Shown here piece by piece: positions 3,569-49,651 of a stretch of 64,000 nucleotides of DNA. The stretch lies in NCBI RefSeq assembly GCF_016026235.1, contig NZ_CP065613.1. One strand, given 5' to 3'. The notes beneath the pieces were generated by a model. It was not told where the DNA came from, searched no databases, and saw only the letters and a list, made by a program, of their open reading frames with translations. A program made the position numbers and the translations under genes. This DNA comes from Escherichia coli (GTDB lineage: Bacteria > Pseudomonadota > Gammaproteobacteria > Enterobacterales > Enterobacteriaceae). Each line of letters opens with the position of its first letter. Within the stretch, counting starts at the first letter, position 1.

Positions 3569-3660
3569 GGGATTTCCTTCCCGCGCATCAATAAAAATGG
3601 CGCTGAAAAAATATTCAACGCCATCGACTTTTTATGCCTTTGCGGCATCGTGCAATGCGT

Positions 3661-4020
<360 letters not shown>

Positions 4021-14746: not shown

Positions 14747-16819
<2,073 letters not shown>

Positions 16820-21654: not shown

Positions 21655-22206
21655 ATGAAAAAGAAAACAACACTTAGCGAGGAGGACCAGGCTCTGTTTC
21701 GCCAGTTGATGGCGGGGACTCGCAAGATTAAGCAGGACACGATTGTCCACCGACCACAGCGTAAAAAAGTCAGCGAAGTGCCGGTGAAACGCTTGATCCA
21801 GGAGCAGGCTGATGCCAGCCATTATTTCTCCGATGAGTTTCAGCCGTTATTAAATACCGAAGGTCCGGTTAAATATGTTCGCCCGGATGTGAGTCATTTT
21901 GAGGCGAAAAAGTTGCGACGCGGTGATTATTCGCCGGAATTGTTTTTGGATTTACACGGTCTGACGCAGCTGCAGGCCAAGCAGGAACTGGGCGCGTTGA
22001 TTGCCGCCTGCCGCCGTGAACATGTGTTTTGTGCCTGTGTGATGCATGGGCATGGTAAGCATATTTTGAAACAGCAAACGCCGCTGTGGCTGGCGCAACA
22101 TCCACATGTGATGGCATTTCACCAGGCGCCGAAAGAGTACGGTGGTGATGCGGCGTTGCTGGTGTTGATTGAAGTGGAAGAGTGGCTGCCGCCGGAATTG
22201 CCGTGA
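21655..22206 (+). CDS. smrB: Ribosome rescue endonuclease SmrB (Smr domain)
   Basis: 183-aa [35 protein letters not shown]...LDLHGLT. Confidence 0.9.
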
Positions 22207-22221
22207 ATATTAAGCACCGAA

Positions 22222-22329
22222 TGCCGGATGCGGCGTGAACGCCTTATCCGGACTACAAAGTGTGCAAATTCAATAGATTGTGATTCAATTGTAGGCCTGA
22301 TAAGACGCGACAGCGTCGCATCAGGCATC
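22222..22329. repeat. REP/BIME element
   Basis: ATGCCGGATGCGGCGTGAACGCCTTATCCGGACTAC ... GTAGGCCTGATAAGACGCGACAGCGTCGCATCAGGCATC between smrB and yfcO. Confidence 0.75.
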
Positions 22330-22338
22330 AGCGCACAA

Positions 22339-23187
22339 CTATAGTTCATTCAGTACATACTGGAAACGGCATGTAGAATCAATTGGCGCACGGCTACTGG
22401 TATTCACCTGTACCACAATGTCGTGTAGCTTTTTGTCCGTCACCGGTTGACGTGAGGGGGTGACTGTCACCTTTGCATTATCACAACCATACGAGGTAAA
22501 GGTTAATAAGTCCGAAACAGCACGACAATATGCCCCTCTGGAATCAAAAACACTGCCATCACAGAGTTTGCCGCTTTCCATCAGGTAGGTCGAAAGCGTA
22601 GTCGTGATAGTCGAACCATCGGATTGCAACCGCAACGCTTTATTATGGCTAACGTAATTCTCACTCCATGATATATCAAAAGAAGCAACCGGAATCGTGG
22701 GGCAAGCGGAATCATGTACCGTTGGACTGGTATAAACACCAAATCCTACCTGTTCTGAAACTGAATAAAATGACGCCTGCCATGGGCAACCATAATTATC
22801 AGACTCGACAGTGACATCAAACGTCATATATGCACAGTAAAAATTCTTCGTATTTATACCTGGACAATTCGAGGTATCAGTCCGACCATAGTCGGTCAAT
22901 TTCAACTGTGGTGCAGGCCCGGAACCGGTCCAGGAAATCACCGGGAGTATGTCGCCACGCCGAGCGTCCGAATTATATTGACCATAACTTACCTCTCCTG
23001 GTGTCAGCACCGTGACATAAAAAAACAAATCACCCACAGGCGATATTCTATTCATCCCATAATAAATCTCAGTACTTTTAAAAGTTGAACTCATGAGCTT
23101 ACTACCAGCATAGCTCTTTGATGTTCCCACATTTACTATAAGTAACAGAAGCGCCGCTAAAAAAAATGTCCATTTTTTCATATTCAA
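22339..23187 (-). CDS. yfcO: Fimbria-associated protein YfcO, putative adhesin / tip component
   Basis: ORF with signal peptide MNMKKWTFFLAALLLLIVNVGTSKSYA; the true start may be the third codon; first gene 3' of the yfc operon. Confidence 0.8.
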   Translation of the reverse strand: MNMKKWTFFLAALLLLIVNVGTSKSYAGSKLMSSTFKSTEIYYGMNRISPVGDLFFYVTVLTPGEVSYGQYNSDARRGDILPVISWTGSGPAPQLKLTDYGRTDTSNCPGINTKNFYCAYMTFDVTVESDNYGCPWQASFYSVSEQVGFGVYTSPTVHDSACPTIPVASFDISWSENYVSHNKALRLQSDGSTITTTLSTYLMESGKLCDGSVFDSRGAYCRAVSDLLTFTSYGCDNAKVTVTPSRQPVTDKKLHDIVVQVNTSSRAPIDSTCRFQYVLNEL

Positions 23188-23732
23188 AAATACTCAAAAG
23201 TTACCGTCATCGTGGCGGTGAAATCTCCGGACGTAACATCTCGTCCATTTACGGCCTGTAACCACGTATTAAAATTGACACTGTTATTTCCCTGATTTAA
23301 CGGGAATGTGGCACCTGTGTTGCTGTTAATAGGTACAGCCGCCCCTCCGGCAGTTTCAATGCCAATCCCAACACCCGTTGCAGAAGATGATGAATCAATC
23401 GACAGAAATCCAGGTAAGTCGGTGTCTTCTGTCCCCGTCAAGGTCACCTTGACATTAAACGCCGTGGCACTTTTGCAATCTTTCAACTGAAAGACTAATG
23501 GCACACGCTCTGACTGACCACGTAGCATTAAATCGCTGGCCGCAATTGTGGGGAAATGGATTTCCGCAAGTAAGTTGCCATTGATTACAGGAGTACAGGA
23601 TTTCCCAAACAAATTACCGGTAAAATGCAGATTATCGGCAGCGGAGACTGTCCCACTAAATAACAGCAGACTACAAATAAGCACCAACACACTGTTTTTC
23701 TTCATTGGTAATCCACCTGTAGCGTAGCCCAC
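23184..23732 (-). CDS. yfcP: Fimbrial minor subunit YfcP
   Basis: 182-aa ORF with signal peptide and pilin-like C-terminus ...TATMTVTFEYF. Confidence 0.8.
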   Translation of the reverse strand: MGYATGGLPMKKNSVLVLICSLLLFSGTVSAADNLHFTGNLFGKSCTPVINGNLLAEIHFPTIAASDLMLRGQSERVPLVFQLKDCKSATAFNVKVTLTGTEDTDLPGFLSIDSSSSATGVGIGIETAGGAAVPINSNTGATFPLNQGNNSVNFNTWLQAVNGRDVTSGDFTATMTVTFEYF

Positions 23733-24172
23733 GCCTCAAAGTCCGCCTCTGGTAAATCGACACCACTCTTTTTTACGGGAACGGCTGTTATCACAGGAAG
23801 GGCTGTTTCATTCACCACTAAGGGGGTATTCAGCTTAAAATCGCTTCCGGCTTGTTTAAGATGTATTGCTAATCCATTGATATCGGTGGTTACAGCCGCA
23901 TCATCAAAGTCACTCTGTGTGCCACTCCAGGTCAATGTCATTTCCATTTGAGGGTCACGAACAGTGGTATCACAGGTAATGGCATATGGCACAAACTGCT
24001 CATAATTGCTGCCGTTAATGTCATCAATATTCACGTCCCGAAACGTCAACTCTATATTTTCTCCATTACTAATTGTGCAATTCGGTGGCTGCACTAAATA
24101 ACCATGAAAAGAAATATTCGAGAGCGCCATAGAGCTAATGCCCCACAACATTAAGAGAGAAATCCGTTTCAT
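23702..24172 (-). CDS. yfcQ: Fimbrial minor subunit YfcQ
   Basis: 156-aa ORF MKRISLLMLWGISSMALSNISFHGYLV... ending ...ATLQVDYQ. Confidence 0.8.
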   Translation of the reverse strand: MKRISLLMLWGISSMALSNISFHGYLVQPPNCTISNGENIELTFRDVNIDDINGSNYEQFVPYAITCDTTVRDPQMEMTLTWSGTQSDFDDAAVTTDINGLAIHLKQAGSDFKLNTPLVVNETALPVITAVPVKKSGVDLPEADFEAWATLQVDYQ

Positions 24173-24669
24173 TGATAATCCACCACAATAGTGGCACTGG
24201 CGCTAAATTCCGCCGCCGTTAGAGATACACCGCTCTGCACGACAGGAACCGCTTCCAGTGCCGGTGCGCCCGATGAAAAGTTAAACGGTAACCATGTGCC
24301 AGGCGTTAAATCCAGAATGGAGTGATCGCTGGCTTTTTGAATCCGAATTCCAAAACCGGCAATACCCGTATCGATTACCGTTTCTCCGTTAATCACGGTT
24401 GTAGTTGCCTGCATATTTAAGCGCAGGTCGTCCATTGCCAGATTGTTGCACACAAGCGAGTAGTCAATGGGGCGTTTGTAACTTACCCCATCGATCTTAG
24501 AAATAAATACATTACCGAACTCCACGCTCGCACCAGTTACCGTACAGGGCGGCGGGGTATCAACGAGCACCCGCAAGACCATCGCAACCGATTTGCTACC
24601 CGCCATTACAGGCGTGCTCACAATACTACATAGCAATAACCACACCCAAGCCGAATAAGATCCTTTCAT
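24169..24669 (-). CDS. yfcR: Fimbrial minor subunit YfcR
   Basis: Start set at the internal ATG (24669) giving MKGSYSAWVWLLLCSIVSTPVMAG...; C-terminus ...ATIVVDYQ; the longer ORF-track start overlaps yfcS. Confidence 0.75.
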   Translation of the reverse strand: MKGSYSAWVWLLLCSIVSTPVMAGSKSVAMVLRVLVDTPPPCTVTGASVEFGNVFISKIDGVSYKRPIDYSLVCNNLAMDDLRLNMQATTTVINGETVIDTGIAGFGIRIQKASDHSILDLTPGTWLPFNFSSGAPALEAVPVVQSGVSLTAAEFSASATIVVDYQ

Positions 24670-24679
24670 ATTAGTGCTC

Positions 24680-25438
24680 CTATCCCTGGCCCTGGCTGTT
24701 TTGCTTTTCATCCACCTGGCAGGTGTTTCCCGTACAGGTGAAGAACAGCGGCATCCGCGCGCCATAGTCGTTGACGTAGGTCAGCACCGGGACGCTATCC
24801 ATTTTGACCTTTAACGGTACGGAGGTTTTTGGCGATATCACCAGCGGGGAAAATCCCGCTGCCGGATTACCATTTTTCTGCGCACTGGCGTTACTGATAA
24901 CCACGAAGTACGGCGTCGGGTTATTGACTGTAAACTCCTGGCCGCTGCGGGTTAAGGTCACCTTATGCTGCCACGGATTTTTCATGCTGACGTTTTCCAG
25001 CGCCTTTGGTCGCCAGAACAGCTTGATGCGCGTTTGCAGCGCAATCTGTAACGTGTTGGGTTTGTTCGATTTCGGCGGGATCTCACGCACGTTGAAATAG
25101 AACACGCTCTCGCGGTCGGCAGGCAGCTTGTTGATATCCGGCATGCCCTGTACCTTCACCTGACCGTTCATCATGGAATCGATGCGCTGCACCGGCGGCA
25201 GTACCGTCAGTGGCGAGCTAATCTTGTTACCCTGTTCATCTTCCATCCAGCTTTGTGCCAGATACGGCATTTTCGGGTCGTTATTGCGCAGCGTGACGCT
25301 GATTGATTTATCACTTTCGTTAAAAATCAGGCGTGTACGGTCCGGCGTGACAGAGGCCTGTGCTGACAGGCTGGCGGCAGTTATCAGTAACGCCAGCGTC
25401 GTTGCGGCCGTTCTGGCAGAGCAAAATAGATTCGTCAT
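24680..25438 (-). CDS. yfcS: Periplasmic fimbrial chaperone (PapD-like)
   Basis: 252-aa ORF with signal peptide and chaperone-like N-domain (...PDRTRLIFNESDKSISVTLRNN...). Confidence 0.85.
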   Translation of the reverse strand: MTNLFCSARTAATTLALLITAASLSAQASVTPDRTRLIFNESDKSISVTLRNNDPKMPYLAQSWMEDEQGNKISSPLTVLPPVQRIDSMMNGQVKVQGMPDINKLPADRESVFYFNVREIPPKSNKPNTLQIALQTRIKLFWRPKALENVSMKNPWQHKVTLTRSGQEFTVNNPTPYFVVISNASAQKNGNPAAGFSPLVISPKTSVPLKVKMDSVPVLTYVNDYGARMPLFFTCTGNTCQVDEKQNSQGQG

Positions 25439-25460
25439 GGATCATTCCTTAATCACGTTG

Positions 25461-28112
25461 TTAATTGGCGGATACCGATACCGGCGCTTCCGTTGGCATC
25501 ACCTGCTGGGTCTGCTCCTGGATCACCGGCTTAATTTGATGAGGCATCGAAGGAGATATCGCCCCTGTTTGTTGACATGGTAGTAACAGGCCATTGAACA
25601 GATCGGCTGGCAGTGGGTCCGGCAGATGAATATCACAGTGGGCCACACCGCCCCATGAAACGATCATATGCTCGCCAGGTTTGACACCCGCGAGGTAGAC
25701 GTTGCCGTCATCATCAACCAGACCGACGTTCTGCGCGTTGTCATTTTTCACTTCCGCGCCAAACGGCGGATGACTGCCATCTTGCAGGCGCAATACCGCC
25801 ATCGCTTTTTGCCCGCTGATAACCGAAAACTTACGGTAGCCAATGGCTCCTTCGGTAAGCGTCGCCTGCACCACAGACTGGGTGGCTTCGGCGTTTTCCG
25901 GCAGGTTGTTAAGGTCGATATAGGCCTGATTGCGGTAGTAGTTGTTGACGTCTGCCACCACGGTCTTACCGAACATATTGGTGTAAACCGCCGCGCCATT
26001 TCCTTCCACCGGAACACCAGCCACGCCATCGGCATCAATCAGCAGGCGCGTACCGCCCATATTCTGGGTACGGTGGAGCGCGTCACCCTGCGCGGTCAGC
26101 GTCGCGCCGCCCTGTAAGGAAATACCTGCCGAGGTGTACTGTCCTTCATGGTAGTTGGCGCTGAGGTCCACCTGCGCCAGCGAGCCATCGTGGCTGTAAT
26201 AGCCGTCAACGCTGGAGTGTTTGTCACTGGTCCCCACGTTCAGCTGGTAGTGAGTTGCGTCATCGACACGGCTGAAATACCCCACCTGGCTGCTGTCCGA
26301 ACCGCTGCCGTAGTTGCCGTTATAGCTGATGGTGCTGCTGTCACCCCACGGCATACTGAGCGATATATACACACCTTTATCGGCCTGGTTATCATACTCG
26401 TAGCGGTATCCGGTCATGGAAATGCTCATATTGCGGATACTGCCTAGGTTGAAGTAGTGCGAGAGCATGACGTTGTAGTTGGTCTGTTCGTCGCGATCCC
26501 AGTAGGTATGGCGGGTGTAGTTGAGATAAACAGACACACCGGCATCCCTGAAGTTCTGGTTATAGGTGGCGGTGTACATCTCTTTGTCGTTGCCGGTGCG
26601 CACCATTTCGCTGTCGCTGGCATCGAGATACTCGCTCATGGTCATGAAGTTCTCTTCCGAGAAGCGGTATCCGGCAAAAGTGACGCGGCTGTTCAGTTCA
26701 TCGAAGTCTTTGGAATAGCTCACGCGAAACGAGTTACCGTCCAGTGAACCTTTACCGTAGGCGGTCTCTTTATCCAGGCGGGTATGCGAGTGGGTGATAT
26801 CAAAGGCGACTGCGCCAAAGACAGACAGGTCGCGACCGACGCCAAGCGCCGCCGACTGATAGTGTTCATCTGCCAGCGCCCCGCCGTACAGCGACCAGCC
26901 GTTGGCAATCCCCCATGAAGCTTCGCCGCCGGAGAAGAAACCGCCCTCAACATGATGCCCCCACTCCTGCGGGCGGCCCATCATCAGCTTATAGCGCACC
27001 TGGCCGGGGCGGGTCAGGAACGGCATCGAGGCGGTGTTGATGTCATATTCCTGCACCTGGCCGTTCTGTTCTTCAATGCGGATGTGCAGTGTACCGGAGA
27101 CAGAATCGCCAAGATCCTGGATGCGGAACGGCCCCGCCGGAACCTGCGTTTCGTAAATCACGCGGCCCATCTGGCTGACGGTCACTTTCGCGGTGGTGTG
27201 CGCCACGCCGGAGATATCCGGCGCATAGCCGCGCAGATTCGGCGGCAACATTTGATCGTCGGTGCTGATACTGCCACCCACGTAGTTAAAGCCGTCGAAA
27301 ATATCAGAATTAAGGTAGTCTTCGCCAAGGCCAAGTTTGGCTTTTAGCGACGGTAAGGCCCGCCAGGCGTAGTAGCGGCTCCACTCCCAGTTTTTTTGCG
27401 TGTCATCACCGTTGATAACATCGTCATCATTGCTTTTGCTGTGCTGGTAGTCAGTCTGCCAGTCGGCTCGCAGACGCCATGCGCCGAGGTTAACCCCAAC
27501 CGTTCCGTTGCCGCTGATTTCATTGCTGTCATCCCCGCCATTTTCTTCATGTCGTGTCTGGGCGGTAATATTGTAGTCAGCAATTAAACCAGAAATACCG
27601 TCATCCCAGCGTGAAGGTGGATCCCAGTTGATGTCGGTATATTCAAGGTAAGCCTGGGGTAATGAAATGACTAACGCTGACTGACTCAGGTCAGCTTTAA
27701 TATCAATGCCTTCCAGTTGACCGAGTTTCAGGCATTTGCCGTCGTGGATCCATTGCAGGTTTTTTGCCACATCCTCTTTTAAGCCAAACTGCGCGACCAG
27801 TTCAGGCGTCAGGCAGGCATAGGTTTTACTGGCATCGTTCTCAGAGGCGTACCAGTAAATATCGTATTCTTCCGCCAGCGGCTGTTTATTTAGTTGAACC
27901 TGTAAATTGTATTTACCAGGTTCGACATATCCCTGGCTGGAAAATCGCTTCAGATCGATTTTTGTGTCGCCTTTTAACTCCAGAAAACGGGAATCAAACT
28001 GAATTTCATCTTCAGCCCAGGCATTGACATAACACCCTGACATTGCCAGCGCAATGCAGCAGGGAAGCACCCGCAGTCGGAAAAGAGAATGGTCAGGCAT
28101 ACACGTATCCAT
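25461..28112 (-). CDS. yfcU: Outer membrane fimbrial usher, intact 883-aa reading frame
   Basis: Single uninterrupted 883-aa ORF with usher-like length and composition (long Gly/Tyr/Asn/Ser-rich beta-barrel region); located between chaperone and major subunit. Confidence 0.85.
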   Translation of the reverse strand: MDTCMPDHSLFRLRVLPCCIALAMSGCYVNAWAEDEIQFDSRFLELKGDTKIDLKRFSSQGYVEPGKYNLQVQLNKQPLAEEYDIYWYASENDASKTYACLTPELVAQFGLKEDVAKNLQWIHDGKCLKLGQLEGIDIKADLSQSALVISLPQAYLEYTDINWDPPSRWDDGISGLIADYNITAQTRHEENGGDDSNEISGNGTVGVNLGAWRLRADWQTDYQHSKSNDDDVINGDDTQKNWEWSRYYAWRALPSLKAKLGLGEDYLNSDIFDGFNYVGGSISTDDQMLPPNLRGYAPDISGVAHTTAKVTVSQMGRVIYETQVPAGPFRIQDLGDSVSGTLHIRIEEQNGQVQEYDINTASMPFLTRPGQVRYKLMMGRPQEWGHHVEGGFFSGGEASWGIANGWSLYGGALADEHYQSAALGVGRDLSVFGAVAFDITHSHTRLDKETAYGKGSLDGNSFRVSYSKDFDELNSRVTFAGYRFSEENFMTMSEYLDASDSEMVRTGNDKEMYTATYNQNFRDAGVSVYLNYTRHTYWDRDEQTNYNVMLSHYFNLGSIRNMSISMTGYRYEYDNQADKGVYISLSMPWGDSSTISYNGNYGSGSDSSQVGYFSRVDDATHYQLNVGTSDKHSSVDGYYSHDGSLAQVDLSANYHEGQYTSAGISLQGGATLTAQGDALHRTQNMGGTRLLIDADGVAGVPVEGNGAAVYTNMFGKTVVADVNNYYRNQAYIDLNNLPENAEATQSVVQATLTEGAIGYRKFSVISGQKAMAVLRLQDGSHPPFGAEVKNDNAQNVGLVDDDGNVYLAGVKPGEHMIVSWGGVAHCDIHLPDPLPADLFNGLLLPCQQTGAISPSMPHQIKPVIQEQTQQVMPTEAPVSVSAN

Positions 28113-28181
28113 CCGTAATTATTATAATTTGCGCGAATTCCATTTAAAAACCCCATAGCCCGAAAGCTATGGGGGTATCAC

Positions 28182-39371: not shown

Positions 39372-39446
39372 GTCCTCTTAGTTAAATGGATATAACGAGC
39401 CCCTCCTAAGGGCTAATTGCAGGTTCGATTCCTGCAGGGGACACCA
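39372..39446 (+). tRNA. argW: tRNA-Arg (anticodon CCU)
   Basis: GTCCTCTTAGTTAAATGGATATAACGAGCCCCTCCTAAGGGCTAATTGCAGGTTCGATTCCTGCAGGGGACACCA: 75 nt, cloverleaf-compatible, anticodon loop CUCCUAA, 3' CCA encoded. Confidence 0.92.
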
Positions 39447-39887
39447 GATACCCTTCAAACCAAATCTACCTTCACCCCGTCAAAGATGGGTTTGGCAGCA
39501 CATTTGCCTTATATCTACTCATTTTTACTGCAACAGGTTGAAATCTCAGCACTGTCAGAAAGTGCTGATGACTAAACAGCCCTGGGCCGGGCGATGTAAC
39601 CATCACACAGAATCCTGATAGCGAAATATGGCGTGACTCGATACTTCACTCCGCAATGCATTCCTTGATGAATTCGCAGGCCCGTGATACACGGGAAAGG
39701 TCGCTGAATGACGACAATGTCCTGGAAATCAGCGAACCGTGTATCCGGAGTACATTTGAGCGACTGTACCAGAACATGAATGAGGTGTTTGGATTAGGCG
39801 ATTATTAGCAGGGCTAAGCATTTTACTATTATTATTTTCCGGTTGAGGGATATGGAGATATCGACAACAACCGGAAAAAGTTTACGT

Positions 39888-41135
39888 CTATATTGCTGAA
39901 GGTACAGGCGTTTCCATAACTATTTGCTCGCGTTTTTTACTCAGGAAGAAAATGCCAAATAGCAACATCAGGCAGACAATACCCGAAATTGCGAAGAAAA
40001 CTGTCTGGTAGCCTGCGTGGTCAAAGAGTATCCCAGTCGGCGTTGAAAGCAGCACAATCCCAAGCGAACTGGCAATTTGAAAACCAATCAGAAAGATCGT
40101 CGACGACAGGCGCTTATCAAAGTTTGCCACGCTGTATTTGAAGACGGATATGACACAAAGTGGAACCTCAATGGCATGTAACAGCTTCACTAATGAAATA
40201 ATCCAGGGGTTAACAAACAGCGCGCAGGAAAGGATACGCAACGCCATAATCACAACACCGATAAGTAATGCATTTTTTGGCCCTACCCGATTCACAAAGA
40301 AAGGAATAATCGCCATGCACAGCGCTTCGAGTACCACCTGGAATGAGTTGAGATAACCATACAGGCGCGTTCCTACATCGTGTGATTCGAATAAACCTGC
40401 ATAAAAGACAGGAAAAAGTTGTTGATCAAAAATGTTATAGAAAGACCACGTCCCAACAATAAATATGACGAAAACCCAGAAGTTTCGATCCTTGAAAACT
40501 GCGATAAAATCCTCTTTTTTTACCCCTCCCGCATCCGCCGCTACGCACTGGTGATTCTTATCTTTAAAACACATGTTGATCATCATAAATACAGCGCCAA
40601 ATAGCGAGACCAACCAGAAGTTGATATGGGGACTGATACTAAAAAATATGCCGGCAAAGAACGCGCCAATAGCATAGCCAAAAGATCCCCAGGCGCGCGC
40701 TGTTCCATATTCGAAATGAAAATTTCGCGCCATTTTTTCGGTGAAGCTGTCAAGCAAACCGCATCCCGCCAGATACCCCAGGCAAAAAAAGAGCGCCCCC
40801 AGAATTAGACCTACAGAAAAATTGCTTTGCAGTAATGGTTCATAAACGTAAATCATAAACGGTCCGGTCAAGACCTGGATGAAACTCATACACCAGATGA
40901 GCGGTTTCTTCAGACCGAGTTTATCCTGAACGATGCCGTAGAACATCATAAATAGAATGCTGGTAAACTGGTTGACCGAATAAAGTGTACCTAATTCCGT
41001 CCCTGTCAACCCTAGATGTCCTTTCAGCCAAATAGCGTATAACGACCACCACAGCGACCAGGAAATAAAAAAGAGAAATGAGTAACTGGATGCAAAACGA
41101 TAGTACGCATTTCTGAATGGAATATTCAGTGCCAT
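39888..41135 (-). CDS. cscB: Sucrose:H+ symporter (LacY-like MFS permease)
   Basis: 415-aa ORF MALNIPFRNAYYRFASSYSFLFFISWSLWWSLYAIWLKGHLGL... recognised as CscB. Confidence 0.88.
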   Translation of the reverse strand: MALNIPFRNAYYRFASSYSFLFFISWSLWWSLYAIWLKGHLGLTGTELGTLYSVNQFTSILFMMFYGIVQDKLGLKKPLIWCMSFIQVLTGPFMIYVYEPLLQSNFSVGLILGALFFCLGYLAGCGLLDSFTEKMARNFHFEYGTARAWGSFGYAIGAFFAGIFFSISPHINFWLVSLFGAVFMMINMCFKDKNHQCVAADAGGVKKEDFIAVFKDRNFWVFVIFIVGTWSFYNIFDQQLFPVFYAGLFESHDVGTRLYGYLNSFQVVLEALCMAIIPFFVNRVGPKNALLIGVVIMALRILSCALFVNPWIISLVKLLHAIEVPLCVISVFKYSVANFDKRLSSTIFLIGFQIASSLGIVLLSTPTGILFDHAGYQTVFFAISGIVCLMLLFGIFFLSKKREQIVMETPVPSAI

Positions 41136-41206
41136 AATTACCTGCCTGTCGTTAAAAAATTCACGTCCTATTTAGAGATAAGAGCGACTTCGCCGTTTAC
41201 TTCTCA

Positions 41207-42117
41207 CTATTCCAGTTCTTGTCGACATGGCAGCGCTGTCATTGCCCCTTTCGCCGTTACTGCAAGCGCTCCGCAACGTTGAGCGAGATCGATAATTCGT
41301 CGCATTTCTCTCTCATCTGTAGATAATCCCGTAGAGGACAGACCTGTGAGTAACCCGGCAACGAACGCATCTCCCGCCCCCGTGCTATCGACACAATCCA
41401 CAGACATTCCAGCAAAATGGTGAACTTGTCCTCGATAACAGACCACCACCCCTTCTGCACCTTTAGTCACCAACAGCATGGCGATCTCATACTCTTTTGC
41501 CAGGGCGCATATATCCCGATCGTTCTGTGTTTTTCCACTGATAAGTCGCCATTCTTCTTCCGAGAGCTTGACGACATCCGCCAGTTGTAGCGCCTGCCGC
41601 AAACACAAGCGGAGCAAATGCTCGTCTTGCCATAGATCTTCACGAATATTGGGATCGAAGCTGACAAAACCTCCGGCATGCCGGATCGCCGTCATCGCAG
41701 TAAATGCGCTGGTACGCGAAGGCTCGGCAGACAACGCAATTGAACAGAGATGTAACCATTCGCCATGTCGCCAGCAGGGCAAGTCTGTCGTCTCTAAAAA
41801 AAGATCGGCACTGGGGCGAACCATAAACGTAAATGAACGTTCCCCTTGATCGTTCAGATCGACAAGCACCGTGGATGTCCGGTGCCATTCATCTTGCTTC
41901 AGATACGTGATATCGACTCCCTCAGTTAGCAGAGTTCTTTGCATTAACGCACCAAAAGGATCATCACCGACCCGACCTATAAACCCACTTATTCCGCCTA
42001 ATCTGGCGATTCCCACCGCAACGTTAGCTGGCGCGCCGCCAGGACAAGGCAGTAGGCGCCCGTCTGATTCTGGCAAGAGATCTACTACCGCATCCCCTAA
42101 AACCCATACTTTGGCTG
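41207..42117 (-). pseudogene. cscK: Fructokinase cscK body; the ATG and first nucleotide of codon 2 are separated from it by IS4 and lie at 43556..43559
   Basis: Frame reads ...(I)TAKVWVLGDAVVDLLPESDGRLLPCPGGAPANVAVGIARLGG... (pfkB family) up to the IS4 left end; splicing out IS4 and one target-duplication copy restores ATG TCA GCC AAA GTA TGG = MSAKVW. Confidence 0.8.
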
Positions 42118-43543
42118 TAATGCCGATCAGTTAAGGATCAGTTGACCGATCCAGTGGCTGTGTAAGAATCCGGAAACGCTCACTTGTTTCCGGATTTTTT
42201 TATGCACATTGGACAGGCTCTTGATCTGGTATCCCGTTACGATTCTCTGCGTAACCCACTGACTTCTCTGGGGGATTACCTCGACCCCGAACTCATCTCT
42301 CGTTGCCTTGCCGAATCAGGTACTGTAACGCTACGCAAGCGCCGTCTTCCCCTCGAAATGATGGTCTGGTGTATTGTTGGCATGGCGCTTGAGCGTAAAG
42401 AACCTCTTCACCAGATTGTGAATCGCCTGGACATCATGCTGCCGGGCAATCGCCCCTTCGTTGCCCCCAGTGCCGTTATTCAGGCCCGCCAGCGCCTGGG
42501 AAGTGAGGCTGTCCGCCGCGTGTTCACGAAAACAGCGCAGCTCTGGCATAACGCCACGCCGCATCCGCACTGGTGCGGCCTGACCCTGCTGGCCATCGAT
42601 GGTGTGTTCTGGCGCACACCGGATACACCAGAGAACGATGCAGCCTTCCCCCGCCAGACACATGCCGGGAACCCGGCGCTCTACCCGCAGGTCAAAATGG
42701 TCTGCCAGATGGAACTGACCAGCCATCTGCTGACGGCTGCAGCCTTCGGCACGATGAAGAACAGCGAAAATGAGCTTGCTGAGCAACTTATAGAACAAAC
42801 CGGCGATAACACTCTGACGTTAATGGATAAAGGTTATTACTCACTGGGACTGTTAAATGCCTGGAGCCTGGCGGGAGAACACCGCCACTGGATGATACCT
42901 CTCAGAAAGGGAGCGCAATATGAAGAGCTCAGAAAACTGGGTAAAGGCGATCATCTGGTGAAGCTGAAAACCAGCCCGCAGGCACGAAAAAAGTGGCCGG
43001 GACTGGGAAATGAAGTGACAGCCCGCCTGCTGACCGTGACGCGCAAAGGAAAAGTCTGCCATCTGCTGACGTCGATGACGGACGCCATGCGCTTCCCCGG
43101 AGGAGAAATGGCGGATCTGTACAGTCATCGCTGGGAAATCGAACTGGGATACAGGGAGATAAAACAGACGATGCAACTGAGCAGGCTGACGCTGAGAAGT
43201 AAAAAGCCGGAGCTTGTGGAGCAAGAGCTGTGGGGTGTCTTACTGGCTTATAATCTGGTGAGATATCAGATGATTAAAATGGCGGAACATCTGAAAGGTT
43301 ACTGGCCGAATCAACTGAGTTTCTCAGAATCATGCGGAATGGTGATGAGAATGCTGATGACATTGCAGGGCGCTTCACCGGGACGTATACCGGAGCTGAT
43401 GCGCGATCTTGCAAGTATGGGACAACTTGTGAAATTACCGACGAGAAGGGGAAGGGCCTTCCCGAGAGTGGTAAAGGAGAGGCCCTGGAAATACCCCACA
43501 GCCCCGAAAAAGAGCCAGTCAGTTGCTTAACTGACTGGCATTA
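42118..43543 (+). mobile_element. IS4 insertion sequence, complete at 1426 bp, flanked by a 12-bp target duplication
   Basis: Terminal inverted repeats TAATGCCGATCAGTTAAGG (42118..) and CTTAACTGACTGGCATTA (..43543); direct repeat ATACTTTGGCTG at 42106..42117 and 43544..43555; encodes the IS4 transposase. Confidence 0.92.
42202..43530 (+). CDS. insG: IS4 transposase
   Basis: 442-aa [52 protein letters not shown]... recognised as IS4 InsG; DDE transposase. Confidence 0.92.
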
Positions 43544-43773
43544 ATACTTTGGCTGACATTTTTTTCCCTTAAATTCATCTGACTTACGCATAGTGATAAA
43601 CCTCTTTTTCGCAAAATCGTCATGGATTTACTAAAACATGCATATTCGATCACAAAATGTCATAGTTAACGTTAACATTTGTGATATTCATCGCATTATG
43701 AAAGTAAGGGACTTTATTTTTATAAAAGTTAACGTTAACAATTCACCAAATTTGCTTAACCAGGATGATTAAA

Positions 43774-45207
43774 ATGACGCAATCTCGATTGCATGCGGCG
43801 CAAAACGCACTAGCAAAACTTCATGAGCACCGGGGTAACACTTTCTATCCCCATTTTCACCTCGCGCCTCCTGCCGGGTGGATGAACGATCCAAACGGCC
43901 TGATCTGGTTTAACGATCGTTATCACGCGTTTTATCAGCATCACCCGATGAGCGAACACTGGGGGCCAATGCACTGGGGACATGCCACCAGCGACGATAT
44001 GATCCACTGGCAGCATGAGCCTATTGCGCTAGCGCCAGGAGACGATAATGACAAAGATGGGTGTTTTTCAGGTAGTGCTGTCGATGACAATGGTGTCCTC
44101 TCACTTATCTACACCGGACACGTCTGGCTCGATGGTGCAGGTAATGACGATGCAATTCGCGAAGTACAATGTCTGGCTACCAGTCGGGATGGTATTCATT
44201 TCGAGAAACAGGGTGTGATCCTCACTCCACCAGAAGGAATCATGCACTTCCGCGATCCTAAAGTGTGGCGTGAAGCCGACACATGGTGGATGGTAGTCGG
44301 GGCGAAAGACCCAGGCAACACGGGGCAGATCCTGCTTTATCGCGGCAGTTCATTACGTGAATGGACTTTCGATCGCGTACTGGCCCACGCTGATGCGGGT
44401 GAAAGCTATATGTGGGAATGTCCGGACTTTTTCAGCCTTGGCGATCAGCATTATCTGATGTTTTCCCCGCAGGGAATGAATGCCGAGGGATACAGTTACC
44501 GAAATCGCTTTCAAAGTGGCGTAATACCCGGAATGTGGTCGCCAGGACGACTTTTTGCACAATCCGGGCATTTTACTGAACTTGATAACGGGCATGACTT
44601 TTATGCACCACAAAGCTTTGTAGCGAAGGATGGTCGGCGTATTGTTATCGGCTGGATGGATATGTGGGAATCGCCAATGCCCTCAAAACGTGAAGGCTGG
44701 GCAGGCTGCATGACGCTGGCGCGCGAGCTATCAGAGAGCAATGGCAAACTCCTACAACGCCCGGTACACGAAGCTGAGTCGTTACGCCAGCAGCATCAAT
44801 CTATCTCTCCCCGCACAATCAGCAATAAATATGTTTTGCAGGAAAACGCGCAAGCAGTTGAGATTCAGTTGCAGTGGGCGCTGAAGAACAGTGATGCCGA
44901 ACATTACGGATTACAGCTCGGCACTGGAATGCGGCTGTATATTGATAACCAATCTGAGCGACTTGTTTTGTGGCGGTATTACCCACACGAGAATTTAGAC
45001 GGCTACCGTAGTATTCCCCTCCCGCAGCGTGACACGCTCGCCCTAAGGATATTTATCGATACATCATCCGTGGAAGTATTTATTAACGACGGGGAAGCGG
45101 TGATGAGTAGTCGAATCTATCCGCAGCCAGAAGAACGGGAACTGTCGCTTTATGCCTCCCACGGAGTGGCTGTGCTGCAACATGGAGCACTCTGGCAACT
45201 GGGTTAG
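43774..45207 (+). CDS. cscA: Sucrose-6-phosphate hydrolase / invertase (GH32)
   Basis: ATG at 43774 gives MTQSRLHAAQNALAKLHEHRGNTFYPHFHLAPPAGWMNDPNGLIWF... (NDPNG GH32 motif), 477 aa. Confidence 0.9.
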   Translation: MTQSRLHAAQNALAKLHEHRGNTFYPHFHLAPPAGWMNDPNGLIWFNDRYHAFYQHHPMSEHWGPMHWGHATSDDMIHWQHEPIALAPGDDNDKDGCFSGSAVDDNGVLSLIYTGHVWLDGAGNDDAIREVQCLATSRDGIHFEKQGVILTPPEGIMHFRDPKVWREADTWWMVVGAKDPGNTGQILLYRGSSLREWTFDRVLAHADAGESYMWECPDFFSLGDQHYLMFSPQGMNAEGYSYRNRFQSGVIPGMWSPGRLFAQSGHFTELDNGHDFYAPQSFVAKDGRRIVIGWMDMWESPMPSKREGWAGCMTLARELSESNGKLLQRPVHEAESLRQQHQSISPRTISNKYVLQENAQAVEIQLQWALKNSDAEHYGLQLGTGMRLYIDNQSERLVLWRYYPHENLDGYRSIPLPQRDTLALRIFIDTSSVEVFINDGEAVMSSRIYPQPEERELSLYASHGVAVLQHGALWQLG

Positions 45208-45214
45208 CATAATA

Positions 45215-46210
45215 TCAGGTGGAACAACGGATCAACAGCGGGCAAGGGATCCGCGTCACACTTCCCCCTTCACGACCTTCAATAATATGCAATGCAGCTT
45301 CCCGCCCGATAATGTCATGTGGAAGCTGAATTGTGGTCAGCGGCGGTAAAAACAGATGCCCGACACCAACCAGATTATCAAAGCCCATTACGGCGACATC
45401 CTGCGGGATACGTACCCCCTTCGCCAGGAGAACCTGATAAGCCACAAAGGCTGCGCGATCGTTACCACATATCAGAACATCAAAATCTGGTTTGCCCGAT
45501 TTGAAGTGGTCATTGAGTAAACTTGCGAGATCGGTGTAGTGATCATCACCTGTTGCCATGTGAAATTGTTTCACCTCAGCCAGATCTCGTCCAGCATCAC
45601 GCCAGGCCTGCTCAAATCCCTGCCGACGATACCCCGTTGCCAACGCACTTTCCGGTAGCCAGAAGCATAACGGTTGACGATAGCCCGCCGCGAGCAAATG
45701 CTGTGTTGATTCATATTGTGCAGTGTAATCATCAGGGATATAACTGGGTAACGCTGGGTCATCCGCCACACAGTTAGCCAATACAATATTTTCACCATAC
45801 AGAGACTCAGGTAGCGTGATATGTCGCAGCCCCATTGTAGTATAGATAATGCCATCCGGACGGTGGGCAAGCAGCTGACGTGCCGCGCGGGCAGCGTCAT
45901 CTTCAGAAAAAATATTGATTAAAAAACTATTCCAGCCGAACTCGCTGGCGGTTTGCTCAATGGCAAGCAGAATATCAACAGAGAAAGGAGTGGTAGCCGT
46001 GTCCTGCGCCAGCACGGCGAGAGTCGACGGCTTACGTCCTTGAGCGCGCATCTTACGGGCGGAAAGATCAGGAACATAATTCAGGGTCTGGATTGCCTGC
46101 AATACGCGGTCACGCGTTGCAGGACGCACAGATTCTGCATTATGCATCACCCGGGAGACTGTCATCATCGACACTCCCGCCAGGCGTGCGACATCCTTTA
46201 ATGAAGCCAT
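45215..46210 (-). CDS. cscR: LacI-family sucrose operon repressor
   Basis: Start set at the ATG (46210) giving MASLKDVARLAGVSMMTVSRVMHNAESVRPATRDRVLQAIQTLNYVPD... (HTH LacI), 331 aa; the ORF track starts 62 codons upstream. Confidence 0.88.
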   Translation of the reverse strand: MASLKDVARLAGVSMMTVSRVMHNAESVRPATRDRVLQAIQTLNYVPDLSARKMRAQGRKPSTLAVLAQDTATTPFSVDILLAIEQTASEFGWNSFLINIFSEDDAARAARQLLAHRPDGIIYTTMGLRHITLPESLYGENIVLANCVADDPALPSYIPDDYTAQYESTQHLLAAGYRQPLCFWLPESALATGYRRQGFEQAWRDAGRDLAEVKQFHMATGDDHYTDLASLLNDHFKSGKPDFDVLICGNDRAAFVAYQVLLAKGVRIPQDVAVMGFDNLVGVGHLFLPPLTTIQLPHDIIGREAALHIIEGREGGSVTRIPCPLLIRCST

Positions 46211-46428
46211 ATCCAAGCCGTTTGCCGTAAAACGGGCACTGTAGCAGAAACAGACGTCACTGGCGAGATCCAACGCCCTATCACCTGTCACGGCAATACA
46301 ATAAAAAATAACAATAATTGCCGAATAATTGTACCCAATTCCGCCTCTGTTCTCGCCAACGAGTAACCATATAGGCAAGTAAGTAAAACATGCCAACTGG
46401 CATCGCCAACCTGGAGAAGAAAATATAA

Positions 46429-46659
46429 ATATGGATCATTGTGCTGCCGCTGTATCCCGACATCAGCCCGGAAATTATTGCGATTGCTATCGGTTCAGGT
46501 GCAATTGGCTGCACGATCGTTACGGACTCGCTTTTCTGGCTGGTGAAACAATATTGCGGCGCTACGCTCAATGAAACATTTAAATACTATACGACAGCGA
46601 CATTTATCGCTTCAGTCGTCGCTCTGGCGGGCACATTCCTGCTGTCATTTATCATCTAA
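46429..46659 (+). pseudogene. dsdX: 3' remnant of the D-serine permease gene dsdX (last ~76 codons only)
   Basis: Frame reads ...[76 protein letters not shown], recognised as the DsdX (GntP family) C-terminus; an in-frame stop lies immediately upstream and no N-terminal part is present. Confidence 0.7.
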
Positions 46660-46676
46660 GCGCAAAGAGACGTACT

Positions 46677-48005
46677 ATGGAAAACGCTAAAATGAACTCG
46701 CTCATCGCCCAGTATCCGTTGGTAAAGGATCTGGTTGCTCTTAAAGAAACCACCTGGTTTAATCCTGGCACGACCTCATTGGCTGAAGGTTTACCTTATG
46801 TTGGCCTGACCGAACAGGATGTTCAGGACGCCCATGCGCGCTTATCCCGTTTTGCACCCTATCTGGCAAAAGCATTTCCTGAAACTGCTGCCACTGGGGG
46901 GATTATTGAATCAGAACTGGTTGCCATTCCGGCTATACAAAAACGGCTGGAAAAGGAATATCAACAACCGATCAGCGGGCAACTGTTACTGAAAAAAGAT
47001 AGCCATTTGCCCATTTCCGGCTCCATAAAAGCACGCGGCGGGATTTATGAAGTCCTGGCACACGCAGAAAAACTGGCTCTGGAAGCGGGGTTGCTGACGC
47101 TTGATGATGACTACAGCAAACTGCTGTCTCCGGAGTTTAAACAGTTCTTTAGCCAATACAGCATTGCTGTGGGCTCAACCGGAAATCTGGGGTTATCAAT
47201 CGGCATTATGAGCGCCCGCATTGGCTTTAAGGTGACAGTGCATATGTCTGCTGATGCCCGGGCATGGAAAAAAGCGAAACTGCGCAGCCATGGCGTTACG
47301 GTCGTGGAATATGAGCAAGATTATGGTGTTGCCGTCGAGGAAGGACGTAAAGCAGCGCACTCTGACCCGAACTGTTTCTTTATTGATGACGAAAATTCCC
47401 GCACGTTGTTCCTTGGGTATTCCGTCGCTGGCCAGCGTCTTAAAGCGCAATTTGCCCAGCAAGGCCGTATCGTCGATGCTGATAACCCTCTGTTTGTCTA
47501 TCTGCCGTGTGGTGTTGGCGGTGGTCCTGGTGGCGTCGCATTCGGGCTTAAACTGGCGTTTGGCGATCATGTTCACTGCTTTTTTGCCGAACCAACGCAC
47601 TCCCCTTGTATGTTGTTAGGCGTCCATACAGGATTACACGATCAGATTTCTGTTCAGGATATTGGTATCGACAACCTTACCGCAGCGGATGGCCTTGCAG
47701 TTGGTCGCGCATCAGGCTTTGTCGGGCGGGCAATGGAGCGTCTGCTGGATGGCTTCTATACCCTTAGCGATCAAACCATGTATGACATGCTTGGCTGGCT
47801 GGCGCAGGAAGAAGGTATTCGTCTTGAACCTTCGGCACTGGCGGGTATGACCGGACCTCAGCGCGTGTGTGCATCAGTAAGTTACCAACAGATGCACGGT
47901 TTCAGCGCAGAACAACTGCGTAATACCACTCATCTGGTGTGGGCGACGGGAGGTGGAATGGTGCCGGAAGAAGAGATGAATCAATATCTGGCAAAAGGCC
48001 GTTAA
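46677..48005 (+). CDS. dsdA: D-serine dehydratase (PLP-dependent)
   Basis: 442-aa [34 protein letters not shown]... recognised as DsdA. Confidence 0.93.
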
Positions 48006-48112
48006 TAACGTTTCAACGCAGCATCGCCATCCTTTCCCTGGGTGAGCGATGCTGCCGATGGCGCAGACTTAAGATCCCCAGTCTTACCCGCTATAACCCC
48101 CTGCTTTTACCA

Positions 48113-49651
48113 TCACCCAACGCCTTTCGCTGTAAACGGCGGTTTCGCAAACCACACCAAAACCGTAAGTAAGATAAAAGCAATAGCCGCCATACGGAAA
48201 ATCTCATTTGCAGAAATAGAAAGTGACTGCTGGGTTATTTCATTATTAATTTCATTAAGAACTCCTGAAAGCGAACCATAGTATTTATCCATAATTTGTG
48301 ACGATGAATTAAACACGGGGTTAAATTGATCGATGGTTGCTGTCAACTGACTATGGTGTAACGATTCGCGTCGTCCCCACAGCGTCATTGTCAACGACGT
48401 ACCAACGGATCCTGACAAGGTACGAAAAAAATTACTCATACTCGAGGCATTGGCAAATTTATTATCTGGCAAGCCTGAAAACGAAATCGTTGTTAAGGGT
48501 AAAAAGAAACAGGCAACGGCGAATCCCTGAAAAAACTGCGGCAAAATGATACCTGTAAAATCAATCGTTGGCATAAATGTCACAGAACGCCAGTAATAGC
48601 AAACCGCATACATCAAAAAACTAAATGTCACCAACACCCGCATGTCAATTTTGTTGCCATAACGTCCTATCAAAGGCGAAATCAATAGTGGCATGATGCC
48701 GATGGGCGCATAAGCAAGTCCGGCCCATATCGCATTATACCCCATCGTTTCCTGGAGTAACTGCGGCATAAGGACTATCGCTCCAGAGTAAAATAAATAC
48801 GCGCAGGTGATACTCACAATACCAATGGTGAAATTACGGGACTTAAACAAACTGAGGTCAAGAATCGGGTTCTCTGAGGTCGACTCCCAAATGACTAAAG
48901 AGATCAGAGAAATAACTGATACTACTGTTAATATTATTATTGTACTCGAGTTGAACCAATCCAGATCGCGCCCTTTATCAAGCATAATTTGCAAGCCACC
49001 AACACCGAGCACTAACAGGGTCAGTCCTGGTAGATTCATTTTGACCGGTGAAGTCTCAGTTTCTCTTCCTTTAAGTAAGGTTAAGCATAATGTCAGGACG
49101 ATAATCCCCATAGGGACATTGATTAAAAATATCCAACCCCAGCTAAAGTTATCGCAAATATATCCGCCTAATATCGGCCCACATATCGGAGCGATAATCA
49201 CGGTCATTGACCATAATGCCAGAGCAAATGTTCTTTTTTCTGGTGGATAATTCCTTAATAATAAACTCTGTGACAGTGGAATTAACGGCCCTGCCATTAA
49301 CCCCTGAACGACTCTAAAAAATATCAGCACATCAAGATTGGTCGATAAACTACACATTAATGAAGACAGCGAAAAAAAAGTGACTGAAAGTAAAAATAAC
49401 CTTAATTCGCCTATTCTTTGTGCCAGCCTGCCGGTAACAGGGATCGCAATGGCATTTGCTACGCCAAACGAGGTGATAACCCAGGTGCCTTCGTCTGTTG
49501 ATGCTCCCAGAAAGCCAGATATTGTCGGTATTGCGACGTTAGAAATAGTGGAATCCAACATTTGCATAAACGTCGCTAATGACAATGCAATAGTGACGCA
49601 CCATAACGTCCCACCGGTTAATGGTGCCGGAGTTGATTTAGTGATTGCCAT
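48113..49651 (-). CDS. emrY: MFS multidrug efflux pump (EmrB paralog)
   Basis: 512-aa 14-TMS-type ORF MAITKSTPAPLTGGTLWCVTIALSLATFMQMLDSTISNVAIP... Confidence 0.9.
   Translation of the reverse strand: MAITKSTPAPLTGGTLWCVTIALSLATFMQMLDSTISNVAIPTISGFLGASTDEGTWVITSFGVANAIAIPVTGRLAQRIGELRLFLLSVTFFSLSSLMCSLSTNLDVLIFFRVVQGLMAGPLIPLSQSLLLRNYPPEKRTFALALWSMTVIIAPICGPILGGYICDNFSWGWIFLINVPMGIIVLTLCLTLLKGRETETSPVKMNLPGLTLLVLGVGGLQIMLDKGRDLDWFNSSTIIILTVVSVISLISLVIWESTSENPILDLSLFKSRNFTIGIVSITCAYLFYSGAIVLMPQLLQETMGYNAIWAGLAYAPIGIMPLLISPLIGRYGNKIDMRVLVTFSFLMYAVCYYWRSVTFMPTIDFTGIILPQFFQGFAVACFFLPLTTISFSGLPDNKFANASSMSNFFRTLSGSVGTSLTMTLWGRRESLHHSQLTATIDQFNPVFNSSSQIMDKYYGSLSGVLNEINNEITQQSLSISANEIFRMAAIAFILLTVLVWFAKPPFTAKGVG

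Follow-up and report, generated by a model that had tools for sequence, protein, structure and literature searches.

In the 64-kb window, the whole stretch of Escherichia coli DNA that we analyzed, positions 39447 to 46441 hold a csc block, with argW on the left and a dsdX remnant and dsdA on the right. We identified this interval as the chromosomal csc regulon, which serves non-PTS sucrose catabolism and comprises genes for the CscB permease, the CscK fructokinase, the CscA invertase, and the CscR repressor. The block occupies the usual site directly 3′ of argW and stands in for dsdC and all but the 3′ fifth of dsdX. A preliminary description of the locus had placed cscB, cscK, cscA, cscR, and IS4 directly downstream of argW, and NCBIfam profiles, together with ARAGORN and Rfam identification of the tRNA, bore this out.

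BLAST homology to K-12 (MG1655) stops at 39446 and restarts at 46442, with 218 nt of dsdX left up to its stop codon. The island is therefore 39447 to 46441. The extent first proposed, 39447 to 46428, was correct on the left and 13 bp short on the right. A GC scan, which had been suggested for placing the boundaries, gave about 43 to 44% for the spacer next to argW and for cscB, about 50 to 52% for the remainder, and up to 60% for IS4. This contrast was too weak to place boundaries, so we took them from the alignment.

The argW gene (39372 to 39446, plus strand), a tRNA-Arg(CCT), was identified by ARAGORN, Rfam (RF00005, 63 bits), and K-12 BLAST, and its 3′ end marks the left limit of K-12 homology. 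An Rfam scan of 38000 to 48500 returned this tRNA and no other match. The adjoining 441-bp spacer (39447 to 39887, plus strand) moves with the csc block and is present at ≥80% coverage in 2623 of 5426 complete E. coli genomes. It holds the remnant of a DUF4942 gene, an open reading frame (ORF) of 50 to 60 amino acids at 39626 to 39808 that is the equivalent of z3622 of EDL933 (PGAP and Pfam calls in near-identical loci). Bases 145 to 345 of the spacer are 72 to 76% identical to full-length DUF4942 genes at other places.

The cscB ORF (39888 to 41135, minus strand) is intact and encodes a sucrose:H+ symporter of 415 amino acids (TIGR00882, 587 bits; cutoff, 220). CscB is full length, matches LacY-type oligosaccharide transporters of the MFS (NCBIfam), and is identical to the protein in FDAARGOS_943 and other assemblies. 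Adjoining cscB and upstream of it is the fructokinase body of cscK (41207 to 42117, minus strand; NF006957, 471 bits; cutoff, 450; profile positions 15 to 302), called as an ORF at 41207 to 42076 on the minus strand in the NCBIfam search. Divergent from cscK on the plus strand is cscA (43774 to 45207), which encodes a GH32 sucrose hydrolase (invertase) of 477 amino acids (TIGR01322, 479 bits; cutoff, 356; PGAP in strain 789); an alternative in-frame ATG at 43765 gives an ORF of 43765 to 45207 and 480 amino acids. The LacI-family repressor gene cscR (45215 to 46210, minus strand; NCBIfam) encodes 331 amino acids. Its ORF as listed is 45215 to 46396, and the real start is 46210, which gives the 996 nt annotated as cscR in homologous loci.

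The last 231 bp of the block (46211 to 46441) have no K-12 homology by BLAST. As the preliminary description had noted, a C-terminal fragment of dsdX precedes dsdA. K-12 BLAST and PGAP define it as 218 nt (46442 to 46659, plus strand), the last 72 codons and the stop, and PGAP annotates it in homologous loci as a pseudogene, "DsdX, missing N-terminus." Missing are dsdC and the first ~1120 nt of dsdX; the breakpoint is at K-12 locus position 15968 within dsdX (14848 to 16185). The D-serine ammonia-lyase gene dsdA (46677 to 48005, plus strand; TIGR02035, 812 bits) is intact yet lacks its activator gene, dsdC.

IS4 insertion in cscK

By sequence and promoter scan, the divergent control region between cscK and cscA (43556 to 43773) is intact. 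It contains two GTTAACGTTAAC palindromes (43665 to 43676 and 43728 to 43739) that bracket a promoter-like site for cscA (TTAACA, 43672 to 43677; CATTAT, 43694 to 43699). These palindromes are predicted CscR operators; two palindromic operators in this intergenic region belong to the description of Jahreis et al. (2002) as quoted in PMC11251922. Despite the presence of IS4, cscA and cscR retain their own control region.

The only IS element in the 64-kb window is a 1426-bp IS4 (42118 to 43543, plus strand; NF033592, 304 bits), whose bounds we took from alignment with the empty site. It carries a single IS4-family DDE transposase gene (42202 to 43530; the ORF as listed is 42184 to 43530, plus strand), and Pfam Nterm_IS4 and DDE_Tnp_1 match the same gene in loci L004 and L007. 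Its terminal inverted repeats, TAATGCCGATCAGTTAAG and TAATGCCAGTCAGTTAAG, match at 16 of 18 positions. The target-site duplication of IS4 is 11 to 13 bp (ISfinder). As the test for an IS4 duplication, we used about one helical turn (10 to 13 bp) shown against the empty site, and the window fits: alignment with the IS4-free allele shows the 12-bp ATACTTTGGCTG at 42106 to 42117 and again at 43544 to 43555, and it is single copy in the IS4-free strains FDAARGOS_943 and SRR13627082.

We found that IS4 lies inside cscK, after codon 5, and not between genes. As a result, cscK has lost its promoter and ribosome-binding site together with the native ATG and the first base of codon 2. Its first two codons are now ATT ACA, supplied by the IS4 end, and its translation begins ITAKVWVLGD versus MSAKVWVLGD in the IS4-free allele. 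The orphaned start remains beyond the right duplication (ACAT at 43556 to 43559, ATGT on the minus strand). The position inside cscK and the separation of cscK-cscB from promoter and start codon are points beyond the preliminary description.

The insertion in the window lineage is recent, because the IS4-free sisters FDAARGOS_943 and SRR13627082 differ from the window by only 0 to 1 position in 2200 bp of flank and 0 to 6 positions in 2600 bp. IS4 copies 100% identical to that of the window occur on the chromosome and the invasion plasmid of the EIEC strain CFSAN029787.

Predicted effect on sucrose use

A terminator scan detected a hairpin at 43514 to 43539 (minus strand), with an 11-bp stem followed by UCUUUUU. 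It lies just inside the right end of IS4 and is oriented against transcripts from the cscK promoter. Its RNA fold is −26.6 kcal/mol (z = −4.6), and 0 of 200 shuffles were as stable. In a crude consensus scan of 41900 to 43900, in which a weak outward promoter in the left end of IS4 could be missed, we found no outward minus-strand promoter-like site toward cscK. We also found no Shine-Dalgarno sequence ahead of the cscK ATT.

In this lineage, IS4 has transposed into the A4-N18-T7 site at cscK codons 2 to 5 and duplicated 12 bp, so that 1.4 kb now separates the cscK-cscB operon from the promoter, ribosome-binding site, and ATG that belong to it. According to our model, transcripts from the native cscK promoter would stop inside IS4 at the intrinsic-terminator-like hairpin, and cscB would go unexpressed. 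A sucrose-negative or late-fermenting phenotype is thus predicted, since cscK-cscB is cut from its promoter and the hairpin faces that promoter. The IS4 at cscK therefore probably turns off sucrose uptake, and precise excision of IS4 could bring reversion. It has been reported that a cscB defect delays sucrose fermentation, which then proceeds via revertants, and that cscK is dispensable (PMC10132054). Low-level read-through could still yield some CscB.

We also considered that IS4 might be neutral or activating, with transcription from or through IS4 driving cscK-cscB, the ATT start in use, and the strain still sucrose positive. The reading frame is preserved across the cscK fusion, and in strain 789 and others PGAP annotates a CscK of 304 amino acids that begins at ATT. 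Outward promoters occur in some IS elements, and the dispensability of cscK for sucrose fermentation would also fit. Against this, the scan returned no minus-strand promoter-like site, the hairpin and its U-run oppose the native promoter, the ATT has no Shine-Dalgarno sequence before it, and IS-interrupted csc loci in Shigella go with no sucrose use (PMC11251922). We consider a neutral or activating IS4 distinctly improbable and favor the loss of cscB expression. With dsdC and dsdX missing, the strain should likewise be unable to use D-serine.

Recurrence of the insertion

The cscK::IS4 junction, which the 28-nt sequence CCCATACTTTGGCTGTAATGCCGATCAG represents, is present in 6 of 5426 complete E. 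coli genomes. The 6 carriers fall on three further csc haplotypes, so that four csc haplotypes have IS4 at one and the same nucleotide, with orientation and duplication also identical. Two other matching genomes resembled same-site carriers but were rejected; their IS4 lies elsewhere, beside mlaA in one and in dsdA in the other.

We compared the divergence of IS4 with that of its flanks. Relative to the window, the flanks diverge by 0.98% in the 789-type haplotype, 2.0% in JNEC-KY173, and 3.7% in RMDEC465, and the IS4 copies differ at 12, 7, and 3 of 1426 bp, respectively. The IS4 divergence is out of step with the flank divergence, and the site therefore looks like a recurrent IS4 hotspot. 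The 789-type alone, with 0.84% in IS4 versus ~1% in the flanks, cannot separate shared descent from independent insertion.

A single origin of cscK::IS4, spread by descent or homologous recombination and followed by precise excision in the IS4-free sisters, would need no hotspot. The near-equal divergence of IS4 and flanks between the window and strain 789 favors it, and the 12-bp duplications could allow precise excision, for which growth on sucrose would select. However, RMDEC465 and JNEC-KY173 depart from this pattern, and the carriers share no common local haplotype around IS4; the window and 789 have 5 differences in the adjoining 230 bp. The csc haplotypes already indicate that the carriers belong to separate clades. 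Since the carriers are 6 of ~2684 csc-positive complete genomes, one ancient insertion would have to be followed by thousands of precise losses. Moreover, FDAARGOS_943 gave one matching place for an 8-kb query and thus has no IS4 anywhere. The cscK site also fits the empirically derived IS4 target pattern. We regard a single origin as very unlikely.

We derived that pattern from elements that share this right end; their 115 distinct sites have 70 to 78% T at +17 to +20 and a T-run that starts most often at +15 or +16. At cscK, the T-run starts at +16. Most of seven complete IS4 sites show the A-run/duplication/T-run symmetry. The 12 bp at cscK are not a GC-rich palindrome, unlike many IS4 targets, so the site matches only the A/T-arm part of the preference. 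IS4-subgroup elements have marked target specificity (PMC2266710), and a transposase preference for this type of target would explain repeated insertion. The type IS4 (ISfinder; insG in K-12) has 1426 bp, 18-bp imperfect repeats, one DDE transposase, and pronounced target selectivity (PMC2266710). The window copy shows no difference of substance and represents one further insertion site.

More tentatively, the sequence of cscK codons 2 to 5, with its A4-N18-T7 arms, might itself specify an IS4 hotspot. Four or more lineages of E. coli/Shigella type would have acquired the insertion separately, with a bias toward those in which IS4 is expanding, for example, after invasion-plasmid gain. The insertion would then be a reversible off-switch for sucrose uptake, with precise excision restoring the operon, and could underlie "late" fermentation. 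We hold this broader proposal to be possible but less probable than not.

Nature of the csc block

The preliminary description had called the block a tRNA-associated island. The block does lie beside argW; it is not a canonical tRNA-integrated island. We found no integrase among the ORFs of ≥60 amino acids in 39447 to 46441, all of which are accounted for, and K-12 has intS where the window has no integrase. The ORFs and IS4 fill the whole interval and leave no space for an integrase or phage gene, in agreement with the earlier claim that there are none; besides IS4, the DUF4942 fragment is the sole remnant of mobile-element origin. A direct-repeat check, also suggested earlier, found the argW 3′ end (15 to 25 nt, ≤2 mismatches, both strands) nowhere else in the 64-kb window. 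The missing integrase and repeat lead us to reject a clean integrase-type island.

Several observations nonetheless speak for a classical genomic island integrated site specifically at argW. The left K-12 boundary falls exactly at the argW 3′ end, DUF4942 is typical of CP4-type integrative islands, and argW is a proven prophage attachment site, occupied by CPS-53 in K-12. In RMDEC465 and TUM13936, too, prophages separate argW from the spacer. That the boundary coincides exactly with the argW end is due in part to the K-12 prophage, which begins at this point. In addition to the absence of integrase and repeat, the right end is inside dsdX, which means that native genes were deleted or replaced and argues against a clean insertion. 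Integrase-mediated integration thus appears unlikely, and a replacement segment, located at a hotspot of recombination and prophage integration, is the better description of the csc block.

The contrast with K-12 that had been drawn initially, with CPS-53 and dsdC-dsdX at argW, held in the K-12 BLAST, and the locus is not collinear with K-12. The flanks, yfdF-mlaA-yfdC-argW and dsdA-emrYK-evgAS, are collinear at 97.7 to 98.7% identity. Between them, K-12 has the 10.2-kb cryptic prophage CPS-53 (intS...torI), a 15-bp attR (pawZ), and a complete dsdCXA, and the window lacks all of these.

The cscR/dsdX (right) junction is present in 2684 of 5426 complete E. coli genomes (49%) and the argW/spacer (left) junction in 1414 (26%). 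These counts and earlier reports (PMC3032704, PMC4366372, PMC11251922) agree with the view that this is a known variable configuration and not a novel system. They do not agree with the proposal that the junctions identify the strain. The internal IS4 does not identify it either; the insertion is rare yet recurs in unrelated backgrounds and is therefore unfit as a clonal marker. At the allele level, the sequence is 99.99% identical to GCA_900449985.1 and GCA_031665325.1 and 99.9% identical to FDAARGOS_943, the nearest of the complete E. coli genomes, with every other at ≤98.5%. It is such allele-level sequence, not the junctions, that places the lineage.

Discussion

Among variable metabolic loci of E. 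coli, the argW site with either csc or dsdCXA is a textbook case, and the choice between the two has been tied to sucrose use and D-serine sensitivity. The csc regulon of E. coli EC3132 and E. coli W (Bockmann 1992 and Jahreis 2002, as cited in PMC3032704 and PMC11251922) has the same four genes, order, and orientation as the window, the same divergent control region with two GTTAACGTTAAC operators, and the same site between argW (PMC3032704) and a truncated dsdX. EC3132 and W are sucrose positive; the window differs in having IS4 after cscK codon 5, with cscK-cscB detached from its promoter. In EHEC, csc replaces dsdC and part of dsdX (PMC4366372). The architecture of EHEC O157:H7 EDL933, z3622-cscB-cscK-cscA-cscR-dsdA, is identical to that of the window, including the small z3622/DUF4942 ORF after argW (PMC4366372, PMC7486766). 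Both have lost dsdC and 5′ dsdX and kept dsdA, and their spacers are ~97% identical, but EDL933 has no IS4 at csc.

In the nonfunctional csc loci of Shigella, a copy of IS1, IS3, or IS4 disrupts cscK or cscB (PMC11251922). These loci resemble the window in combining an IS interruption with intact cscA and cscR, and invasion plasmids of the EIEC/Shigella type carry IS4 copies identical to that of the window. Such hints may point to a lineage of EIEC/Shigella type, but the presence of a single IS in 64 kb speaks against a Shigella rich in IS elements. The report on Shigella gives IS4 in csc without the exact insertion point or recurrence (PMC11251922). Thus, the csc layout is common and already described, and IS-disrupted csc, including disruption by IS4, is already known from Shigella; the IS4 insertion is the one uncommon feature of this locus.

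Taken together, we consider it highly probable that a csc regulon at its usual argW site has had cscK-cscB detached from its promoter by a recent IS4, leaving cscB silent and the strain sucrose negative or late fermenting and without D-serine use, and that this insertion recurs through the target preference of IS4. The finding has little significance beyond annotation and typing. Because the four csc genes annotate as intact and PGAP rescues cscK through an ATT inside IS4, genome-based prediction would wrongly score such a strain as csc positive. The cscK site adds one more well-documented natural target for the study of IS4 target selectivity.

The csc genes replace dsdC and most of dsdX downstream of argW

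We found that homology to K-12 stops at 39446, the final base of argW [tRNA-Arg(CCT), 39372-39446; ARAGORN and Rfam], and starts again at 46442, within dsdX (BLAST against MG1655). Between these breakpoints, MG1655 has instead the cryptic prophage CPS-53 (intS to torI, attR pawZ), dsdC, and full-length dsdX. In the window, argW is followed by a 441-bp spacer, cscB (39888-41135, minus strand, 415 aa), cscK (41207-42117, minus), IS4 (42118-43543, 1,426 bp), the cscK/cscA control region between IS4 and cscA, cscA (43774-45207, plus), cscR (45215-46210, minus), 231 bp of island-specific DNA, a 218-nt 3' remnant of dsdX (46442-46659), and an intact dsdA (46677-48005). The csc-locus products were named by NCBIfam profiles with scores above or near the curated cutoffs, and PGAP gives the same gene names in near-identical loci of complete genomes. 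This confirms the csc locus at argW reported in a preliminary description, whose island coordinates, 39447-46428, were correct to within 13 bp by the MG1655 alignment.

As that description also claimed, the island contains no integrase gene. No second copy of the argW 3' end (last 15 to 25 nt, up to 2 mismatches) was found anywhere in the 64 kb. The sole trace of mobile-element ancestry in the island is a DUF4942 gene fragment of 50 to 60 aa (39626-39808), with 72 to 76% DNA identity to full-length DUF4942 genes elsewhere in E. coli. A GC scan found only mildly atypical base composition, with the spacer and cscB at ~43 to 44% GC.

Of 5,426 complete E. coli genomes, 2,684 covered a 300-bp probe that spans the cscR/dsdX junction, and 1,414 covered a junction-spanning argW/spacer probe. 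The second count is lower because in some genomes, such as RMDEC465 and TUM13936, a prophage separates argW from the spacer. E. coli W carries csc as an insertion between argW and dsdX (PMC3032704); in EHEC, it lies in place of dsdC and part of dsdX, at a recombination hot spot (PMC4366372); and csc is distributed by phylogroup and is mutually exclusive with D-serine use (PMC11251922). The junction prevalence and these reports support the earlier interpretation of a known variable configuration.

The flanks, yfdF-mlaA-yfdC and emrY-emrK-evgAS, are K-12 backbone. At 36075-37133, two ORFs (93 and 224 aa) make up yfdF, a single 352-aa gene in K-12. This lineage probably has a yfdF pseudogene; in the sister genome FDAARGOS_943, an additional IS1 lies at yfdF. 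Between cvpA and dedD (3660-4019), a 91-bp unit made up of REP/BIME-like palindromes is repeated four times with 97% matches, versus one copy in K-12 (2430913-2431014). The yfc fimbrial operon region (22206-29366) aligns to K-12 over 4.2 kb at only ~83.5% identity and has unaligned stretches on either side; because the surrounding backbone is 97 to 98.5% identical, this region looks like an allelic replacement.

IS4 removes the native start of cscK

We set the limits of IS4 from alignments of the window to strain 789, another carrier, and to FDAARGOS_943, whose allele has no IS4. The 1,426-bp element has terminal inverted repeats matching at 16 of 18 positions and is flanked by a 12-bp duplication, ATACTTTGGCTG, at 42106-42117 and 43544-43555. 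On its own strand, native cscK begins ATG TCA GCC AAA GTA TGG. The promoter side of IS4 keeps ATGT and one duplication copy; on the gene side, the IS4 end is fused to the other copy, and cscK now opens ATT ACA GCC AAA. Lacking the native ATG, the gene is therefore begun by ORF calling only at an internal TTG. PGAP annotates the carriers with an "intact" 304-aa kinase starting at the ATT (window 42119-42121), which sits in the IS4 terminal repeat. A plus-strand hairpin with a trailing T7 (42165-42200) lies just 5' of the transposase ATG and would block outside read-through into the transposase gene.

IS4 may have entered the same cscK site repeatedly

The cscK/IS4 junction was spanned in only 6 of 5,426 complete genomes. 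An exact-protein lookup gave GCA_031665325.1 and GCA_900449985.1, which are 99.99% identical to the window over 13.2 kb, including IS4. The lookup also recovered SRR13627082 and FDAARGOS_943, which belong to the same lineage without this IS4 (0 to 1 flank difference in 2,200 bp and 0 to 6 in 2,600 bp). Among complete E. coli genomes, only FDAARGOS_943 is at least 99% identical to the window backbone, and it appears to lack any IS4.

Four csc haplotypes share the insertion nucleotide, orientation, and duplication. Compared with the window over 4,800 bp of flanks and the 1,426 bp of IS4, the 789 type has 47 flank and 11 to 12 IS4 differences, JNEC-KY173 has 95 and 7, and RMDEC465 has 179 and 3. 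Because divergence in IS4 and divergence in the flanks do not run in parallel, the sequences favor separate insertions over a single old one. The argW-csc-dsd neighborhood gathers IS insertions in several strains: EC1722-1 has IS4 within dsdA and IS1 in cscA, and TUM13936 has IS4 adjoining mlaA.

A single search of species-representative genomes for the 21-nt right end of IS4 returned 120 loci in many genera. Among 115 distinct right flanks, T occupied positions +17 to +20 in 70 to 78%, and the first T run most often started at +15 or +16. The cscK target has a T7 run from +16, mirrored by A4 on the opposite side. Most of seven complete sites have this symmetry of A run, 10- to 12-bp duplication, and T run, often at terminator-like palindromes. 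The pattern agrees with the striking specificity in both target arms published for IS4-subgroup elements (PMC2266710). The genera among the 120 loci include Pseudomonas, Acinetobacter, Budvicia, Yersinia, Silvania, and Dryocola, and the elements with this right end lie almost always within terminator- or REP-like palindromes between A and T runs. A preprint on laboratory evolution on sucrose describes reads joining K-12 IS4 to a plasmid with cscBKA (bioRxiv 10.1101/2024.12.20.629655), which may be an experimental hit on the same cscK target.

EIEC strain CFSAN029787 has copies that match the window IS4 with 100% identity, including one on its 294-kb plasmid among ipgB2, ospD1, ospB, phoN2, and icsP. 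The carrier RMDEC465 has 31 IS4 copies, and the csc loci of Shigella have typically lost function through IS1, IS3, or IS4 insertion in cscK or cscB (PMC11251922). For these reasons, the window may come from an EIEC/Shigella-type lineage; however, a single IS in 64 kb is atypical for Shigella.

The insertion is predicted to silence cscK and cscB

IS4 leaves the divergent control region on its right intact, including a promoter-like site for cscA and two GTTAACGTTAAC palindromes (promoter scan and sequence). With this region preserved, cscA and cscR should behave normally. A terminator scan found, just inside IS4 and facing the cscK promoter, a hairpin with an 11-bp stem followed by UCUUUUU (-26.6 kcal/mol, z = -4.6). 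Transcripts from the cscK promoter would run into IS4 and meet this terminator-like hairpin at once. The promoter scan found no cscK-strand promoter-like site between the hairpin and cscK, and no Shine-Dalgarno sequence precedes the cscK ATT. From these features, we infer that cscK-cscB is silent. Since CscB is the sucrose permease, the strain would be sucrose negative or a late fermenter. A cscB frameshift was shown to delay sucrose fermentation, which proceeds via revertants, and cscK is dispensable (PMC10132054). Because dsdA lacks dsdC and dsdX, the strain is also expected to be unable to use D-serine, like EHEC (PMC4366372, PMC7486766).

The csc locus is already known, and IS-disrupted versions have been reported in general terms. 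The analysis adds modestly to this: it gives the exact structure of the IS4 insertion, the likely silencing of cscKB despite an "intact" annotation, and evidence for a recurrent IS4 target. The ATT-start annotation conceals the disruption of cscK from gene presence surveys.
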